The translations under genes and the position numbers were made by a program. DNA of 64,000 nt, from NCBI GenBank assembly GCA_041687695.1, contig JAWLBL010000013.1, positions 146,874 to 210,873 on the forward strand, in the 5' to 3' direction. Below, piece by piece: positions 57,286-64,000 of this stretch. The first letter of the stretch is position 1. The number at the start of each line of letters is the position of its first letter. Source of the stretch: Myxococcota bacterium. GTDB taxonomy: Bacteria > Myxococcota_A > UBA9042 > PHBI01 > JAWLBL01. Below the pieces are notes generated by a model, which saw nothing but the letters and a program-made list of their open reading frames with translations, had not been told where the DNA came from and did not search any database.

Positions 57286-58272
57286 TCAGCGCGCGGCCTC
57301 GGCCAGGAGCAGGCTGGACGGACGCGAGGCCATGTCGCGTCGGGCGCCGGCCGTCTCGATGAGGGCGACCACCTCGGTGCCGATCCCCGGCCTCATGCGC
57401 AGCGCCAGGTGATCGACCATCTGGTAGACGCGGGTCAGGCCCAGGCCGGCGCCGCCCTGCTTGGTGTCGATCTGGTCGGGGCCGCCGCGTAGCCCCTTGG
57501 AGACGAAGCGGCGCGCCGTGACGGCCACCAGGCTGCCGTAGGGGTCGCGGACGGCGACGGCGGCTTGCTGGTCGTCGGCGGCCATGGTCAAGACGGCCGC
57601 GCCGCGCGCCGGCAGCTCGACGCGCTGGCGGCGGTCGAGCGAGGCGAACAGGGGCTTGCCGTTGGCGTCGACCGGGGCGTCGTAGACGGCGTTGGTCACC
57701 AGCTCTTCGGCGGCGTCCTGCAGCAGCGAGACGAGGCGGCGACGCAGGCCGCGCTGCCCGAAGAAGTCGGCGACCACGTCCAGCGCGCCGTCGCGGTCGT
57801 CGCTGCCGCGCAGCGGGACCTCGCAGGTGGCGGCGCCCGGGGCCATCAGGCCGTCCCAGCCGAACGACGGGCCGGCGAGGCGGCAGCGCAGGGCGTGGCG
57901 CAGCTCGCGGTCGCTGGCGAAGTGGTCGCGCGGGACGATGGCGAGGGTCGTGGGCAGGCCGATCAGGGCGGCGAGGCGGTCGTGCTCGCAGGGGCCGCAC
58001 AAGAAGATCACCGGCGCGCCGGCGAGGCGGCCGACGACCGCCTCGAGCGCCTGCGTCGGGCGCGCGCCCAGCAGCTCGGGGTCGATGACCGCGACCGAGA
58101 GCGGCCCCGCGGGGAAGGTCGTCGGGTCGACCGCGGCCACCGGGTCCAGGCCGGCCTCTCTCAGGACGCCGGCGACCCGCGGCTCGTCGAGCGTGCCGAC
58201 GAAGACCAGCGCGCGTCGGGTCACCCCGGCGGGGGCGGCGTTCAGCTTGGCGGTCCCGGCGGGGGTCGGCAT
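57286..58272 (-). CDS. receiver-like domain fused to a GHKL (HATPase_c) ATPase, RsbW/SpoIIAB-like serine-kinase candidate
   Basis: C-terminal AEELVTNAVYDAP...GGAGLGLTRVYQMVDHL (N-box and G-box of GHKL) with no HisKA/DHp region. N-terminal roughly 170-aa CheY-like fold (ALVFVGT...VAVIDPEL...VIFLCG). Last gene of the STAS/PP2C operon. Confidence 0.7.
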   Translation of the reverse strand: MPTPAGTAKLNAAPAGVTRRALVFVGTLDEPRVAGVLREAGLDPVAAVDPTTFPAGPLSVAVIDPELLGARPTQALEAVVGRLAGAPVIFLCGPCEHDRLAALIGLPTTLAIVPRDHFASDRELRHALRCRLAGPSFGWDGLMAPGAATCEVPLRGSDDRDGALDVVADFFGQRGLRRRLVSLLQDAAEELVTNAVYDAPVDANGKPLFASLDRRQRVELPARGAAVLTMAADDQQAAVAVRDPYGSLVAVTARRFVSKGLRGGPDQIDTKQGGAGLGLTRVYQMVDHLALRMRPGIGTEVVALIETAGARRDMASRPSSLLLAEAAR

Positions 58273-58277
58273 CGGGG

Positions 58278-59216
58278 CTACTCCGGTAGGGTCGGGACGA
58301 TCGCGGCCTGGCCCACCGACGGCCGGGGCAGCTGGCCCGTGGCCTCGAGGCGGGCGCGCGGGGGTTTGACGTCGGCGGCGCTCGCCGGGACGACGATGGG
58401 GCGGGCCCGCTCGACCAGCGGGGCGCTCTGCATGGCGCGGGCCGCGGCGGCGAAGGCCTTGCCCGTGCCGGCGCGCCAGCCGGCGATGCCGCCGCCCTTG
58501 CCGGCGCCGCCGAGCAGGGCCTGGGTGACGGCGTCCTTGATGGGAGCGGACAGGGCAGCGCCCTGGGGCGCCACGACGACGGCCAGCGGGATGCGGCCGC
58601 CCTGTCCGACGAGGCGCAGGCCCGCGGCGGCCGGATGGTCCAGCGGGGCGAAGGCGGCCGGGGTCACCTGCGCCTTGACGGCGCCCAGGGCCGCCTCGGC
58701 GTCCTTGGCGGGCCGGACCTCGGCGAAGAAGCCCTGGCCCGACACCTCGCCGGCCAGGGCCGCGTTGATGAAGTAGCGGGCGTTGTCGGCCCCGACCTCG
58801 GGGACGCTGAGCACCTTGCCGCGCAGGCTCATGAGGTTCGCCACGTCGGGCGCGGCGTACAGGGCGGCGAGGGGGCCCTCTTCGCCCCGGCCGTCGACGG
58901 CGTGGGCCAGGATGACGCCCGTCCGGCCGACCTGGAACAGTCCGTCGGTCACAAGCACGTCGACCTTGCCGGCGGCCAGGAAGCTGAGCAGGTCGGCGCG
59001 CTTGGCGAAGGCGCGGGCCTCGAAGGTCAGCTGGCCCCCGGCGGCCTGGCTCATCGCTCTGGCCAGGGCGTCGGCGTAGGCGCTGCGCTCGGTGTTCGAG
59101 GCGAAAGAGGCCTGCGGCAGGTAGACGCCGACGCTGACCGTCTGGGCGGCCGCGAGGCCCGGCGCCAGCAGCGTCAGGGCGAGCAGGACGACGGCGAGCA
59201 GGCGACGCGAGCGCAT
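58278..59216 (-). CDS. periplasmic binding-protein-like protein (PhnD/SsuA-type fold candidate)
   Basis: 312 aa. Signal MRSRRLLAVVLLALTLLAPGLAAAQT. Alternating beta-alpha pattern of a type-II PBP. Its ATG shares one nt with the upstream TGA (TGATG). Confidence 0.6.
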   Translation of the reverse strand: MRSRRLLAVVLLALTLLAPGLAAAQTVSVGVYLPQASFASNTERSAYADALARAMSQAAGGQLTFEARAFAKRADLLSFLAAGKVDVLVTDGLFQVGRTGVILAHAVDGRGEEGPLAALYAAPDVANLMSLRGKVLSVPEVGADNARYFINAALAGEVSGQGFFAEVRPAKDAEAALGAVKAQVTPAAFAPLDHPAAAGLRLVGQGGRIPLAVVVAPQGAALSAPIKDAVTQALLGGAGKGGGIAGWRAGTGKAFAAAARAMQSAPLVERARPIVVPASAADVKPPRARLEATGQLPRPSVGQAAIVPTLPE

Positions 59217-61663
59217 CAGTTCACCCCCTGACCGGCGACGAAGCCGAAGAGGCGCTCCTTGCGCTCGGCGCGCTCGCGGGCGCGCTGTGCGTCGGGGCGA
59301 CCCGAGGTGGCGTAGCGCCGGAAGAGATCCCAGGCTTCGCGATAGGCGCCCTCGCGGTCGCGGATCAGCGCCAGGTTGTAGAGCGCCTCGGGCGGGCCGC
59401 CGTCGCTGGTCTGCCGGAGCCAGGTGCGGGCGGCCTCGCCGGCCTGACCGGAGGCGAGGCGCGCCGCGGCGATGTTGTGGTCCATGGCGGCGCTGGGGGC
59501 GGCCTGCGCCGCCTGGGTCCAGTGCTGGATGGCCTTGGCCCAGGCCTTGGCCGCGTAGGCGGCGTGGCCGAGCTGCTCGTGGGCGGCGGCGGTGATGGCG
59601 GCGGCGGTCGGGCCGCCGTCGCGCACCTTGGCCAGCGCCTTGAGGGCGCCGTTGGCGTCGCCCTTCCGCAGCAGGCTCCACGCCACGCACGCGTGCGCGA
59701 GCTCGCGCGCCGAGGCCCAGGCGGGGCCTGCGAGCGCCCGTCCCTCGGCCATCTGCCGCAGCGCACCCAGCGGGCCTTCGCTGCCAGGGGCGGCCAGGAC
59801 GGCGGCCATCGCGGAGCCCAGCTGGGCCAGCGTGCGATCGCGCGCCTCGAGCCCCTCCTTGGCGGACAGCGCCCGCTCGAGGGCCGCCCGCGCGCCTCCG
59901 GCGTCCCCCGCGGCCAGCCGGTCGAGCCCCAGCTCGAGGGCCGCGATCGCGGCGCTGCGTTGCGCCGCGGCGTCTCCCGGCGCCAGCGCGGCGGCCTCGT
60001 CGAAGGCCTCGGAGGCCCGCGCCCACTCGCCCTTGTGGGCGGCCAGGTGCCCCGTGACCGTCAGGGCCAGGCCCTGCAGCTGCGTCCCGGCCGCGGTGGC
60101 GGCCTCGATCTCGGCCTGCGCCGGCTCGTGACGCCCGGCGAGCAGATGCAGCATCGCCCGGACGGCCCGCGCGTCCGGCCCCGACGGCGCGTCCTCGCGG
60201 CCGCTCGGCCCGATGGCTCGCTCGGCCGCCTCGACCTGGCCCGCCGCCAGCTCGAGCAGCGCCAGGTTCACGCGCGCCGGCTCGTAGGTCGGCATCCGGT
60301 CCAGCGCCTCCTGCAGCCCCCGCCGCGCCGCGGCGTCGTCCCCGGTGGCGCGCGCGGCGGCGGCCTGCGCCGTCTTGACGGTGACCAGCCCCAGCGTCGC
60401 GTCGGTCAGCGCCGGGTCGAGCGTGGCGGCGCGCTCGAAGGCGGCGAGCGACTCCTGGAGCCGCTGCAGCGCCCACAGATCGCGCCCGCGCTCGACGTGC
60501 AGCGGCGCGCGCTCGGGCGCCTTGTGGAGGGCCTTGTCGTGCCAGGCCAGCGCCTCGTTCGGCCGGCCGGCCCGGCGCAGCAAGGTCCCGAGCCACCCCG
60601 TGATCTCGAAGGAGTCGTCGAGACCGGCGGCTCTCTCGGCCTGGGTCAGCGCCTCGTCGAGCTGGCCCTCGCGGAAGGCGATCTGGCTCAACCCGTAGTA
60701 GACCCACGGGTTGTTGGCGGCGCCCGTCCCGGCGAGTTCGAAGGTCTGGCGGGCCTCGGCGAGGCGCCCGAGCTGCAGCTGGCAGTCCGCCTTGAAGTAC
60801 AGGGCGGTGGCGTAGTCGGGTTGCAGCTTCAGGAAGCGGTCGAGCAGCGCGACGGCCTGGTCGCAGCGGCCCTGCTTGATGCGCACCGACGCCAGGTTGT
60901 AGAGCAGGCGCGGGCGGTCGCCCTCCTCGCCCAGCAGCTCCTCGTAGGCGCGGCCGGCCTCGACCAGCCGCGACGAGCGGAACAGGGCGTTGGCGCGGTT
61001 GATGCGCGCCGCCAGGTTCTTGGGCTCGACCACGAGGAAGGCGTCCAGGGCCACGACGGCCTCCTGGAAGCGATCGAGCTTGAGGTAGTAGGTGCCGAGG
61101 AGCCCGAGCGCCTTCTTGTCGTCGGGACGGACCTTTACGTACCGCTCGATGTGCGGCAGGCCTTCGAACCAGCCCGACTGCTGGAAGTGATAGGTCGCCA
61201 GGAGCCACATGGCGTCGAAGCGCTTGGGGTCGTCGGCGACGCGCTCGAGCAGCTTGGCCGCGTCCTGCGGGCGGCCGTTCTGGAACTGGTGCAGGCCGAG
61301 CTGGTGCGTGTAGTCGGGGTCGTCCGGGGCCTTGGCGTGCAGCGGCTCGAGGAGGTCGACGCCCTCCTGGAAGCGCTTGTCGATGAGCAGCGCTCGCGAC
61401 AGGCCGAGGTTGGCCTGCTTGTTGCCGGGCTCTCCCGCCAGGATGCGCCGGTAGGCCTTCTCGGCCTCGGCGACGCGCTGCTTGGCCGCCTTGGTGTCGC
61501 CCCGCGCGGTCAGCGTCCGCGCCGAGTCGAGCGCGTCGTCGCCCACCTGCAGCAGGCGCTGCTTCTCGCGCTTGTCGAGATCCTGCGCCCCCAGCGCGGG
61601 GCCGAGGGACAGCGCGACGGCCATCGCCGCCGCGAGTAGGCGTGCGGCGAGGCGGGGCGTCAC
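59216..61663 (-). CDS. large periplasmic TPR-repeat protein
   Basis: 815 aa. Signal MTPRLAARLLAAAMAVALSLGPALGAQD. At least 15 TPR-like helical repeats. GTG start overlaps the upstream phosphatase stop (GTGA). Confidence 0.75.
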   Translation of the reverse strand: MTPRLAARLLAAAMAVALSLGPALGAQDLDKREKQRLLQVGDDALDSARTLTARGDTKAAKQRVAEAEKAYRRILAGEPGNKQANLGLSRALLIDKRFQEGVDLLEPLHAKAPDDPDYTHQLGLHQFQNGRPQDAAKLLERVADDPKRFDAMWLLATYHFQQSGWFEGLPHIERYVKVRPDDKKALGLLGTYYLKLDRFQEAVVALDAFLVVEPKNLAARINRANALFRSSRLVEAGRAYEELLGEEGDRPRLLYNLASVRIKQGRCDQAVALLDRFLKLQPDYATALYFKADCQLQLGRLAEARQTFELAGTGAANNPWVYYGLSQIAFREGQLDEALTQAERAAGLDDSFEITGWLGTLLRRAGRPNEALAWHDKALHKAPERAPLHVERGRDLWALQRLQESLAAFERAATLDPALTDATLGLVTVKTAQAAAARATGDDAAARRGLQEALDRMPTYEPARVNLALLELAAGQVEAAERAIGPSGREDAPSGPDARAVRAMLHLLAGRHEPAQAEIEAATAAGTQLQGLALTVTGHLAAHKGEWARASEAFDEAAALAPGDAAAQRSAAIAALELGLDRLAAGDAGGARAALERALSAKEGLEARDRTLAQLGSAMAAVLAAPGSEGPLGALRQMAEGRALAGPAWASARELAHACVAWSLLRKGDANGALKALAKVRDGGPTAAAITAAAHEQLGHAAYAAKAWAKAIQHWTQAAQAAPSAAMDHNIAAARLASGQAGEAARTWLRQTSDGGPPEALYNLALIRDREGAYREAWDLFRRYATSGRPDAQRARERAERKERLFGFVAGQGVN

Positions 61664-63228
61664 GTGATCCTCCCGATGACCACGGTCACGTCGTCCTCGA
61701 GCGGGACCTGGTCGCGGAACTGGTCGAAGTCCGTCACCAGGTGACGGATGGCCTCCTCGGGGCCGATGGCGCGGTCGAACTCGCTCAGGACGCGCAGCAG
61801 GCGCCGCATGCCGTACTGCTTGCCGCCGCGCCCCACCGACTCGATGAGCCCGTCGGTGTACCAGACGATGAGGTCACCCGACTGCACCTTGGTGCGCCGC
61901 GCCTCGAAGCCGGCCGGGTCGCCGTCGCCCAGGCGGTTGCCGCGCGAGACCAGGCGGGTGAGCTTGACGCCGTCCTCGGCCCAGCGCAGCAGCAGGGCGG
62001 GCGGGTGGCCGGCCGACGAGAAGAACAGGGTGCTCTGGTGCGTGTCGAGGATGGCCGCGGTGGCGGTCATGAAGAACGAGCCGGCGCCGGCGTCGCGGAT
62101 GACGCGATCGAGGACCCGCAGCGTCTCGGAGACCTGCAGGCTGTCGCCCTGCAGGTGCCGCAGCGTGTCCAGGCAGCTCTTGGCCGTGGCGGTCAGCATC
62201 GCCGCCGGCACGCCATGGCCGGTGACGTCGCCGACGAGCAGGGCGCTGCAGCCGCGGGGCAGGGCGGCGAAGTCCCAGAAGTCGCCGCCGCAGGTCGTGG
62301 CGGGCTCGTAGTAGCCGGCGACCTCGAGGCCCGGCGCCGTGTGCGTCCCCTCGCCGGGCACCAGGACGCTCTGGATCTGGCGCGCCAGGCTCAGCTCGTG
62401 CTCGAGCTCGGCCTTGGACACGGCCTCGACCAGCAGCGTCTGGATTCGGTCGGCCATGTGGTTGAACTGCAGCCCCAGGCTGCCGACCTCGTCGTTGGAC
62501 TCGACGCGCACGCGCGCGCCCAGGTCGCCCTGCGCGATCTGCGAGGCGGTCCGCTCGAGGCGCTGGATGGGGCGCGCGAACCGGAACGCCTGCAGCAGGC
62601 TCAGCAGCACGCCCAGGCTGAGGGCGACGGCGCCGACGAGCAGGGTCGAGTGGAGCGCCTTGCGCGTGCGCTCGGCGCGCTCGGTCTCGACCGAGGCGAG
62701 CGAGGCCTGTAGCGGCTCGAGATCGTAGCCAAACGCGACGATGCCACGGGCGACCTGTTCGCCGCCCTCGCCGTCGACCACGATGGGTTGCTGGACCCGC
62801 AGGATGCGCTTGCCGTCCTCGTCGTCCTCTCGGGCCGAGGCGGCGAGCAGGCCGTCGACCGGCGCGTCGAGGCGCGGCAGCTCGGCGGCGTCGATGGCGC
62901 GGCGCGAGTCGGCGAGGATGCGGCCGTCACGGTCGGCGACCAGGGCGAAGACGACCTGCGGGTCGTGCGCGACCAGGCCGCGCACCACCGAACCCAGCGT
63001 GCCGAGCTCCGTCCCCTCGAGCGCCTCGCGCAGCGACACCGACAGGACGGTCGCGGTCGACTGCGCGCGCCGGTTGGCCAGGTCGGAGAAGGTCGCCTGC
63101 ATGTCGCTCGCGCGCTCGTCGTGCAGGCGCCGGATCTCGACCGCGTTGACGTAGCCGAGGAAGGCGACGACCAGCGCGACCAGCAGCGTGGACGCGAGCG
63201 TGAGCTTGACGCCGAGGGTGAGTCTCAT
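61660..63228 (-). CDS. transmembrane HAMP-domain PP2C-type serine phosphatase (RsbU/SpoIIE-like)
   Basis: 522 aa. TM1 LTLASTLLVALVVAFLGYV, a roughly 160-aa extracytoplasmic loop, TM2 LLVGAVALSLGVLLSLLQAF, HAMP (RPIQRLERTASQIAQGDLGARV...VGSLGLQFNHMADRI), then a SpoIIE/PP2C domain (GGDFWDF, DVTGHG, LIVWYTDGLIE, LEDDVTVVI). Confidence 0.85.
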   Translation of the reverse strand: MRLTLGVKLTLASTLLVALVVAFLGYVNAVEIRRLHDERASDMQATFSDLANRRAQSTATVLSVSLREALEGTELGTLGSVVRGLVAHDPQVVFALVADRDGRILADSRRAIDAAELPRLDAPVDGLLAASAREDDEDGKRILRVQQPIVVDGEGGEQVARGIVAFGYDLEPLQASLASVETERAERTRKALHSTLLVGAVALSLGVLLSLLQAFRFARPIQRLERTASQIAQGDLGARVRVESNDEVGSLGLQFNHMADRIQTLLVEAVSKAELEHELSLARQIQSVLVPGEGTHTAPGLEVAGYYEPATTCGGDFWDFAALPRGCSALLVGDVTGHGVPAAMLTATAKSCLDTLRHLQGDSLQVSETLRVLDRVIRDAGAGSFFMTATAAILDTHQSTLFFSSAGHPPALLLRWAEDGVKLTRLVSRGNRLGDGDPAGFEARRTKVQSGDLIVWYTDGLIESVGRGGKQYGMRRLLRVLSEFDRAIGPEEAIRHLVTDFDQFRDQVPLEDDVTVVIGRIT

Positions 63229-63232
63229 CGCG

Positions 63233-64000
63233 TCACTCCAGCGTCACGATGAGGTAGACGATGACGCCGAGCAGCCCGAGCATCACGAGGAGCACGCCGA
63301 CGAAGACGACGTCGCCGCCGCGGCGACCCGTCGCCTGGGAGGGTGGGGCCGCGGCGCCGAGGCGGGCCGCCACCTGGGAGATGGTCGACTGCGAGCGCTC
63401 CGGGTCGGGGGTGACGCCGAGCTGCGCGATGGTGCGCGCCCCGCCGGCGCCCGGGCCCGACACGAGCGGGGCGGCGTCGGAGGCGCCGGCGTCCAGGGCC
63501 ACGCGGGCCGCCGCGACCATCGGCTCGAGCTGCTCGCGGTCGACCTCGCGGGGCTGGTCCTCGATGAAGCCGAAGTAGTTCTCCTCGACGTCGTCGAGGG
63601 CGTTGCCGCAGGCGGCCTTGCCGCAGGGGAACTGCGGGGCGGCGCGCCGGCCCGGGCCGCGGAGATCCAGCGCGTTGAGGCGCTCGTCGCCCTCCTTGCC
63701 GCACTTGTCGCAGTAGTAGGGGGCGAAGAAGGTGAAGACCGTGGCGGCGCCGGCGAAGTTCCGGACCAGGTTGACCTGGTCCATGATGGCCGGCGAGCAG
63801 TCGAAGAGCACGACGCGCAGCCTGCGCTTGTGCAGCTCGGCCATCCAGTTGACCCAGTCGCGGACGCCGACCGAGTTGATGCGGTAGATGCCGGCGAGGT
63901 CGACGAGCAGCGTGTCGTGACGGATGCGGGCCGTCAGATCGGGCAGCCCGTTGTGCTCGTCGATGACCCCCGACAGGCGGATGGCCGTCCAGCGCTCACC
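63233..64000 (-). CDS. STAS-domain anti-sigma-factor-antagonist-like protein with C-terminal Zn-ribbon and TM anchor (5' end beyond window)
   Basis: Reverse-strand translation from the window edge gives ...ERWTAIRLSGVIDEHNGLPDL...LLVDLAGIYRINSVGVRDWVNWMAELHKRRLRVVLFDCSPAIMDQVNLV (STAS fold). Then CDKCGKEG...CGKAACGN (Cys4), then a hydrophobic tail VVFVGVLLVMLGLLGVIVYLIVTLE. The ORF track begins only at the internal Met 63844. Confidence 0.7.
   Translation of the reverse strand, partial: GERWTAIRLSGVIDEHNGLPDLTARIRHDTLLVDLAGIYRINSVGVRDWVNWMAELHKRRLRVVLFDCSPAIMDQVNLVRNFAGAATVFTFFAPYYCDKCGKEGDERLNALDLRGPGRRAAPQFPCGKAACGNALDDVEENYFGFIEDQPREVDREQLEPMVAAARVALDAGASDAAPLVSGPGAGGARTIAQLGVTPDPERSQSTISQVAARLGAAAPPSQATGRRGGDVVFVGVLLVMLGLLGVIVYLIVTLE

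Follow-up and report, generated by a model that had tools for sequence, protein, structure and literature searches.

Partner-switching modules are a major signalling device of bacteria, and the switch proteins at their centre have been described as small, soluble, single-domain STAS proteins. In the RsbU-RsbV1/V2-RsbW system of Chlamydia and the SiaABCD system of Pseudomonas, a sensor phosphatase with two transmembrane helices and a sensor domain in the periplasm (and, in SiaA, a HAMP domain) acts on such a small switch protein; SiaC acts on a diguanylate cyclase, and the output of a module need not be a sigma factor. Here we analyse a gene at the end of a stretch of 64,000 nucleotides (hereafter the window) from a Myxococcota bacterium (assembly GCA_041687695.1, contig JAWLBL010000013.1, positions 146,874 to 210,873). 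The gene occupies 63233..64000 on the minus strand (unless stated otherwise, coordinates are window positions and features given by them lie on the minus strand), and is delimited by its open frame, its identity to a full-length counterpart and its G+C content at third codon positions (GC3). It encodes a predicted tail-anchored STAS protein with a zinc-ribbon-like insert, and is the first of five tightly packed minus-strand genes, separated by gaps or overlaps of -4 to +5 nucleotides.

The window protein shares the fold of SpoIIAA, RsbV and TM1442, with an aligned serine at the N-terminus of helix α2, and like SpoIIAA and RsbV it is encoded with a PP2C phosphatase and a predicted Bergerat-fold kinase. 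It differs from SpoIIAA and RsbV in carrying a Cys4 ribbon and the motif DDxEExYFxF in place of helix α4, in its additional disordered linker and C-terminal membrane anchor, and in the residues around the serine, which read RINS(V/C)GVRDW in its family and not DSSGLG; moreover, its operon is without a sigma factor gene, and as a single sequence it falls under the Pfam STAS thresholds. The switch proteins of the Chlamydia Rsb and SiaABCD systems are soluble, whereas here the substrate itself would be membrane-anchored, and the window phosphatase is not a SiaA orthologue, since it scores 84 bits against the NCBIfam SiaA model, for which the cut-off is 700. STAS domains do stand at the cytoplasmic face of the inner membrane, as proposed here, in MlaB (of MlaFEDB) and in SLC26/SulP proteins; however, either a partner protein holds them there or they are fused to a transporter of 14 transmembrane helices, none of them being attached through a single C-terminal tail anchor, and the transporter genes of those systems are not present at the window locus. 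All4160 of Anabaena, a STAS domain fused to a glycosyltransferase, is controlled by the phosphatase HenR (PMC13555669); it is an example of a phosphorylatable STAS domain that exists within a larger protein and regulates a non-sigma target. Its fusion partner is an enzyme, whereas the window protein has a zinc ribbon, linker and membrane anchor attached to its STAS domain.

Literature searches for STAS proteins with a zinc ribbon, a tail or a membrane anchor returned no description of such an architecture. Nothing was found for tail-anchored proteins combined with anti-sigma factor antagonists, and nothing relevant for STAS combined with Myxococcus or with transmembrane proteins; a 2021 review of partner-switching STAS proteins mentions neither zinc, nor a cysteine cluster, nor a membrane-anchored form. 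For partner switching in Myxococcus xanthus the search found only a phosphatome paper of 2010, which describes a conserved group of HAMP-SpoIIE phosphatases (MXAN_4562 / Adeh_0917 / sce8427), and searches on the locus tags MXAN_4560 to 4564, the last of which is esgA, turned up no relevant result.

By combining homologue searches, structural models and the comparison of related loci, we consider it probable, if some way from assured, that the gene encodes a tail-anchored STAS/Cys4 protein with a cytoplasmic head, and that its operon assembles a partner-switching module at the membrane. The operon would encode all three components of a partner-switching cycle: the switch (STAS), its phosphatase (PP2C) and a kinase with an RsbW-type fold.

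The minus-strand frame that ends with the stop codon TGA at 63235..63233 is free of stop codons from 63233 up to the window edge at 64000. A protein search found its full-length counterpart (P0001, 272 amino acids, 100% identical) on contig JAWLHM010000023.1 of assembly GCA_041690335.1, which we take as locus L001. There the frame continues beyond position 64000, with neither an in-frame stop nor a different domain, to a GTG start codon 51 bases (17 codons) past the window edge, with AGGAG 11 nucleotides ahead of it; the window holds residues 18-272, and residues 1-17 lie outside. The initial annotation, made from the window's letters alone, had read the gene as cut by the window edge and not as starting at the methionine at 63844, and it was right on this point: Met-63844 is residue 70 of the full protein, and it is internal because the N-termini of the homologues align with the GTG start of P0001. 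The list of open reading frames (ORFs) begins the gene at ATG 63844 because frames running off the window could not be listed.

We modelled the STAS protein with AlphaFold (AF2) on an alignment of its homologues, with a mean predicted local distance difference test score (pLDDT) of 82.5, values mostly above 90 for residues 10-190, and a predicted template modelling score (pTM) of 0.71. The STAS core within the window (residues 18-106; 63734..64000; pLDDT >90) has the element order β1-β2-α1-β3-α2-β4-α3, of which β1 is cut by the window edge. The best Foldseek matches in the Protein Data Bank (PDB) are SpoIIAA, TM1442, RsfB, RsbV and other antagonists (probability 1.0, root-mean-square deviation (rmsd) 2.1-2.9 Å over about 90 residues), and MlaB (6xgz, 7cge, 6zy3) and SLC26 STAS domains are also found among the matches; superposition on 1tid, 1th8, 1vc1, 6m36, 8ih8, 4qtp and 4hyl gives target-normalised TM-scores of 0.52-0.73 over 80-100 residues. 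A family profile built from 44 homologues (A1) matches TM1442 (1sbo) at E = 8.7e-4, a marginal but specific match, and more weakly matches the prestin STAS domain, 4qtp and SpoIIAA. Pfam STAS or STAS_2 is matched at E <= 0.01 by 27 of the 44 family members (best 3.9e-6), and a scan of the window protein against NCBIfam gave no match. On the strength of the profile match to TM1442, the Pfam matches of the family and the model with its Foldseek neighbours, we regard the STAS fold of the N-terminal part, as modelled, as established, as the initial annotation had supposed.

The candidate phospho-acceptor, which that annotation had left to be located by alignment, is Ser60 (codon 63872..63874), in the motif R57-I-N-S60-V-G-V-R-D-W66 as seen in the alignment and the model. 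The profile alignment places it on the serine of the TM1442 motif MDSAG. We take that serine to be the phosphorylated Ser59, equivalent to Ser58 of SpoIIAA. In the model, helix α2 begins at residue 60; in the alignment Ser60 is invariant (44 of 44 homologues), and R57, N59, G62, V63, R64, D65 and W66 are likewise invariant.

A Cys4 zinc-ribbon-like insert (residues 107-150; 63602..63733), recognised by its conservation and by the strands of the model, begins right after helix α3. The sequence and the alignment show a first knuckle C114-x2-C117 (63712..63701) and a second knuckle C143-x4-C148 (63625..63608), which correspond to the motifs CDKC and CGKAAC quoted in the initial annotation. Among the aligned homologues C143 never varies, and C114 and C117 are each conserved in at least 90%. 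In the model the first knuckle sits on a β-hairpin, between strands 107-114 and 119-126, and after a loop the second lies between β-bridges at 142 and 149-152, with pLDDT 77-94 across the region. The initial annotation had placed the cysteine cluster after a complete STAS fold; the cluster is indeed there, but in the model it takes the place of helix α4, and the ribbon is by this prediction an integral part of the STAS domain rather than a C-terminal domain of its own. It is followed by the motif D153-D154-x-E-E-x-Y-F-x-F162 (63566..63595), found in the alignment and modelled as short helices (156-159 and 161-165), in which D153, D154, F160 and F162 are invariant and E156 and Y159 are at least 90% conserved. 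Pfam zinc-ribbon models gave sub-threshold matches in relatives only, and none for the window protein: Zn_ribbon_SprT in one family member (0.0089) and in a soluble paralogue at locus L086 (0.03), Zn_ribbon_8 in P0278 (1.5e-4), and the TFIIB-type Zn_Ribbon_TF in a soluble paralogue at locus L002 (0.02).

Beyond the head, a helix at residues 172-187 (63491..63538; pLDDT 91-96) is moderately conserved in the clade of the window protein (36% pairwise identity), and is followed by a linker rich in Ala, Gly, Pro and Ser (residues 190-245; 63317..63484; pLDDT 42-66), of which residues 199-234 are disordered in the model. About 55 residues thus separate the globular part from a predicted C-terminal membrane helix, the tail anchor (V248-T270; 63242..63310), after which come only L271 and E272; this is the tail VVFVGVLLVMLGLLGVIVYLIVTLE of the initial annotation. 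The helix contains the strongest Kyte-Doolittle 19-mer of the protein (mean 2.97), and the model confidently shows helix at 247-270 (pLDDT 94-96). The N-terminal 190 residues are modelled as a globular STAS/ribbon domain, and the protein is predicted to have a single hydrophobic helix, at its extreme C-terminus, with neither a signal peptide nor a second membrane segment. Because R243 and R244 precede the membrane helix, with two residues after it, and because the catalytic domain of the phosphatase is cytoplasmic, we infer from the sequence that the head is cytoplasmic and tail-anchored in the inner membrane.

The genes that follow supply the remaining parts of the proposed module. The ATG of the next gene lies 4 nucleotides after the stop codon of the STAS gene and begins a sensor phosphatase of 522 residues (61660..63228), assigned from Pfam, with the order first transmembrane helix (TM1), Cache-like periplasmic domain, second transmembrane helix, HAMP, SpoIIE/PP2C (SpoIIE 1.1e-37, HAMP 2.3e-14, weak dCache/sCache), its cytoplasmic portion extending from about residue 216 to 522; the transmembrane phosphatase that the initial annotation had expected beside the STAS protein is thus its immediate neighbour. 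The third gene, overlapping the phosphatase gene by 4 nucleotides, encodes a TPR protein of 815 residues with a signal-peptide-like N-terminus (59216..61663; Pfam TPR families down to 3.8e-38; syntenic in related loci). It is overlapped by 1 nucleotide by a gene for a binding-protein-like product of 312 residues (58278..59216), which also has a signal-peptide-like N-terminus, is a called gene in L001 and is likewise syntenic. The window copy of this product has no Pfam match; a protein of 311 residues in the same operon position of locus L087 matches Phosphonate-bd, a periplasmic binding-protein family. Since no gene for an ATP-binding cassette (ABC) permease or ATPase lies nearby, the 312-residue protein may be a sensor partner and not a transport component. 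The last operon gene, 5 nucleotides further, encodes a protein of 328 residues (57286..58272) in which motifs, the AF2 model and Foldseek indicate a receiver-like domain and an RsbW/SpoIIAB-type Bergerat fold.

The order STAS, PP2C, TPR, binding protein, kinase is found in 11 loci of the window's clade, and the order of the first four also occurs in other Myxococcota and in Bradymonadia lineages; in about 50 of 89 loci the STAS gene is followed by a phosphatase gene. In distant lineages the module usually comes after a TPR protein of about 2,100 residues, together with a small PAS protein; the gene of this large TPR protein is directly upstream on the same strand at L002:1339-7833, L087:611-6973 and L089:391-6879. 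In the window's clade it is absent, and a divergent cdsA is the upstream neighbour. In three distant loci that were examined closely (L002, L086 and L089), the gene after that of the binding protein encodes a second STAS + ribbon paralogue, which is soluble (L086:10511-11035, L089:13786-14268 and L002:14986-15486); these paralogues of 160-174 residues carry RxNSCGVREWVNF and CxxC...CxxC, have no linker or anchor, and stand in the slot of the window's kinase gene. Past the window edge, upstream of the divergent cdsA, lies a gene for a single-domain response regulator of 124 residues (L001:8144-8518), which keeps its place by cdsA and the STAS operon and which may act in the same pathway; its identity across loci is 65-72%, where that of the STAS protein is no more than 41-53%. 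A link to Tol-Pal was considered for the TolQRA-like genes near two of the loci, and was dropped because such genes are absent from more distant syntenic loci.

In the alignment of the 328-residue protein, which has few detectable homologues, all labelled 'hypothetical', the N-box, G1 and G2 motifs of ATP binding are conserved. Its AlphaFold model (pLDDT 88, pTM 0.88) was matched by Foldseek to receiver domains over the N-terminal half, and over the C-terminal half to SpoIIAB (target-normalised TM-score 0.72-0.80) and RsbW (up to 0.87). A candidate acceptor, Asp64, is invariant in the receiver-like domain. As modelled, the protein would therefore join a receiver-like domain to a kinase fold of the RsbW/SpoIIAB type, that is, a kinase of the cognate type for a STAS switch. 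The top full-length Foldseek match (E = 2.9e-8) is LvrC of Leptospira (PDB 9qih), a receiver + anti-sigma Bergerat-fold (RsbW-like) protein (PMC13269768). LvrC has the same order of domains as the 328-residue protein, receiver-like and then anti-sigma/kinase fold, at 12-13% identity and with the difference that the 328-residue protein has Arg for the conserved Lys; the arrangements of the domains differ, since global superposition is poor (rmsd about 19 Å). To our knowledge, LvrC has no known connection with a membrane-anchored STAS protein.

The mechanism that we propose would run as follows. The receiver-like/RsbW-type kinase would phosphorylate Ser60 and so keep the STAS head inactive. The Cache-like domain of the phosphatase would read a periplasmic signal, possibly together with the secreted TPR and binding-protein-like products, and the signal would activate the HAMP-PP2C phosphatase, which would take the phosphate off Ser60. 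The dephosphorylated, tethered head could then capture the kinase, which would be held at the membrane while its target is freed; the anchor and the flexible linker would keep the substrate locally concentrated beside the membrane phosphatase. Phosphorylation of Ser60, binding of metal, insertion into the membrane, the direction of signalling and its output are all conditional elements of this scheme. If it is true, it shows how a partner-switching module becomes spatially restricted, and how an output could be controlled through the recruitment to the membrane of a kinase or anti-sigma protein. The interest of the finding lies mainly in this membrane-tethering logic, in the size of an unnamed subfamily and in the conserved membrane helices.

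Several observations weigh against the proposed module. The single STAS sequence stays below the Pfam gathering scores (STAS_2 14.6 bits, cut-off 29.2, E = 0.04; STAS 12.3 bits, cut-off 22.6), and the conservation of a serine at the start of a helix may have purely structural reasons. Among the genes within ±10 kb no Pfam sigma factor family was found, nor was one found in the related loci inspected, and because no sigma factor is nearby the term 'antagonist of an anti-sigma factor' is an analogy and not a demonstrated role. For about 40% of the related loci a search within 6 kb yielded no PP2C gene, although many of these loci are on short contigs or have rearranged modules. The 328-residue protein has no Pfam match above threshold (weak HATPase_c_2 only, 2.6e-4); in comparisons with the PDB its single sequence gave spurious armadillo-repeat matches only and its profile gave none, and its kinase-type domain is accordingly recognised by fold and motifs only. 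Its receiver-like domain is also non-canonical, with Arg115 in place of the receiver's conserved Lys.

The conservation of the membrane helices bears on how the parts may be assembled. Within the clade, the anchor helix of the STAS protein has 52% pairwise identity, on par with the globular core, and its last seven residues (YLIxTLE) have 80%, against 21% for the linker; the anchors of other clades have 29%. In the phosphatase, TM1 (63148..63216) is the most conserved segment, with 81% pairwise identity in the clade, compared with 69% in the catalytic and 45% in the periplasmic domain. Because both helices are conserved far above the linker and the periplasmic domain, their sequences suggest that the STAS anchor may pack specifically against the phosphatase helices in the membrane.

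Such conservation would also fit a stable complex in which the STAS protein is not phosphorylated, but acts as a scaffold or regulatory subunit that tunes the phosphatase or the TPR/binding-protein sensor, in the manner of MlaB on MlaF or of SLC26 STAS domains, with Ser60 in a structural role; the presence of MlaB and SLC26 STAS domains among the fold matches, the lack of a sigma factor in the neighbourhood and the binding-protein-like gene within the operon point the same way. We nevertheless find this unlikely: the top matches in both fold and profile come from phosphorylatable antagonists (SpoIIAA, RsbV and TM1442) and not from MlaB or SLC26, the operon has both enzymes of the cycle (a PP2C phosphatase and an RsbW-type kinase fold), and Ser60 is invariant. 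Within ±10 kb there are no genes for ABC permeases, ABC ATPases or SLC26 proteins, and an ABC-transporter or MlaB-like role, which the binding-protein-like gene had brought up, was rejected as the primary explanation because the neighbourhood is without permease and ATPase genes.

Zinc-thiolate redox switches are known in the regulation of sigma factors (ZAS domains), and the Cys4 cluster of the window protein could in principle be a redox or metal sensor, as in Hsp33 or the zinc-containing anti-sigma factor RsrA: oxidation of the thiols or loss of the metal would unfold the ribbon and alter partner binding, beside or instead of phosphorylation. The four conserved cysteines in two knuckles do adjoin the conserved DDxEExYFxF face, and the ribbon is modelled with somewhat lower confidence (pLDDT 77-83). 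However, some relatives (P0052 and P0228) have lost the cysteines but retain the anchor and the remainder of the domain, which fits a replaceable structural role; the pattern CxxC...CxxxxC, carried on β-hairpins, is the usual one for structural zinc ribbons, and the operon contains no redox enzymes. A sensory function is on these grounds quite improbable, and the predicted zinc ribbon is probably mainly structural.

The combination of STAS, Cys4 and membrane helix, for which the initial annotation had suggested a search, is present in over 120 independent sequences, which come from many different assemblies. Among 135 relatives from a word-indexed search, 132 keep the motif NS[CV]GVR[DE]W, 130 both cysteine knuckles and 125 a C-terminal hydrophobic 19-mer (the remainder being mostly 183-260 residues long and fragment-like), and the four cysteines and the hydrophobic tail noted in the window protein are thus real, conserved features of the family. 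Across the family, the YFxF motif (residue 162) and the membrane segment are separated by a spacer of 57-161 residues, with a median of 110. A profile search run exhaustively over 1.84 billion representatives found 4,210 clusters at E <= 1e-3, 3,227 at <= 1e-10 and 544 at <= 1e-30, and species-representative genomes hold 274 loci with relatives; the best 80 of these 274 belong, bar a few with uninformative titles, to Myxococcota (Kofleriaceae, Haliangiales, Polyangia and unclassified 'Myxococcales') and Bradymonadia. The module is conserved in uncultured and cultured members of the Myxococcota, a phylum known for complex signalling; among the culturable carriers is Haliangium ochraceum, with the related locus L080.

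The STAS + ribbon unit also occurs in soluble forms of about 165 residues, as a soluble tandem pair (P0278), as tandem units that lead into a membrane segment and then a periplasmic portion of about 350 residues, which includes a PDZ domain (P0262 and P0276), and fused to a Ser/Thr protein kinase (P0268); P0274 is a further example of these other forms from the profile search. Database labels for the members are 'STAS domain-containing protein', 'anti-sigma factor antagonist' and 'hypothetical'. Judged by these comparisons, the unit defines a large subfamily of STAS proteins that has no name and takes several architectures. A wider synthesis would hold together that this unrecognised STAS + Cys4-ribbon subfamily comprises at least 3,227 clusters at 50% identity, that its tail-anchored form, after dephosphorylation by the adjacent sensor phosphatase, sequesters a receiver-linked RsbW-type kinase or anti-sigma protein at the membrane, and that in the window's clade the anchor packs on the phosphatase helices to give a pre-assembled transmembrane complex; that all of these hold jointly is possible but rather doubtful.

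The chance that the architecture is an artefact of a frame error or gene fusion, the real product being an ordinary small STAS protein to which linker and tail do not belong, is negligible and we consider this reading refuted: high-GC genomes do give many long spurious ORFs, several of which overlap the STAS gene here, but GC3 is 96-100% through the linker and membrane segment, the architecture is shared by more than 120 independent sequences drawn from numerous assemblies, and the clade-specific C-terminus YLIxTLE is conserved. GC3 is 97.6% across the whole STAS gene and 96-100% in each of its parts, whereas it is 51% in the overlapping minus-strand ORF 63225..63704, which shows the STAS frame to be a genuine coding frame over its full length; the plus-strand ORF 63261..63578, with GC3 of 98%, is the antisense of the STAS frame in the third-position register. 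The mechanical ORF list contains very long spurious ORFs, such as 58278..61208 and others between 57565 and 62712, and it is unreliable in this region because the DNA is about 75% GC, for which spurious long ORFs are typical. The ORF at 58278..61208 (976 residues) is the 312-residue binding-protein-like gene with an open upstream extension, and antisense ORFs of 356-720 residues are also among the spurious ones.

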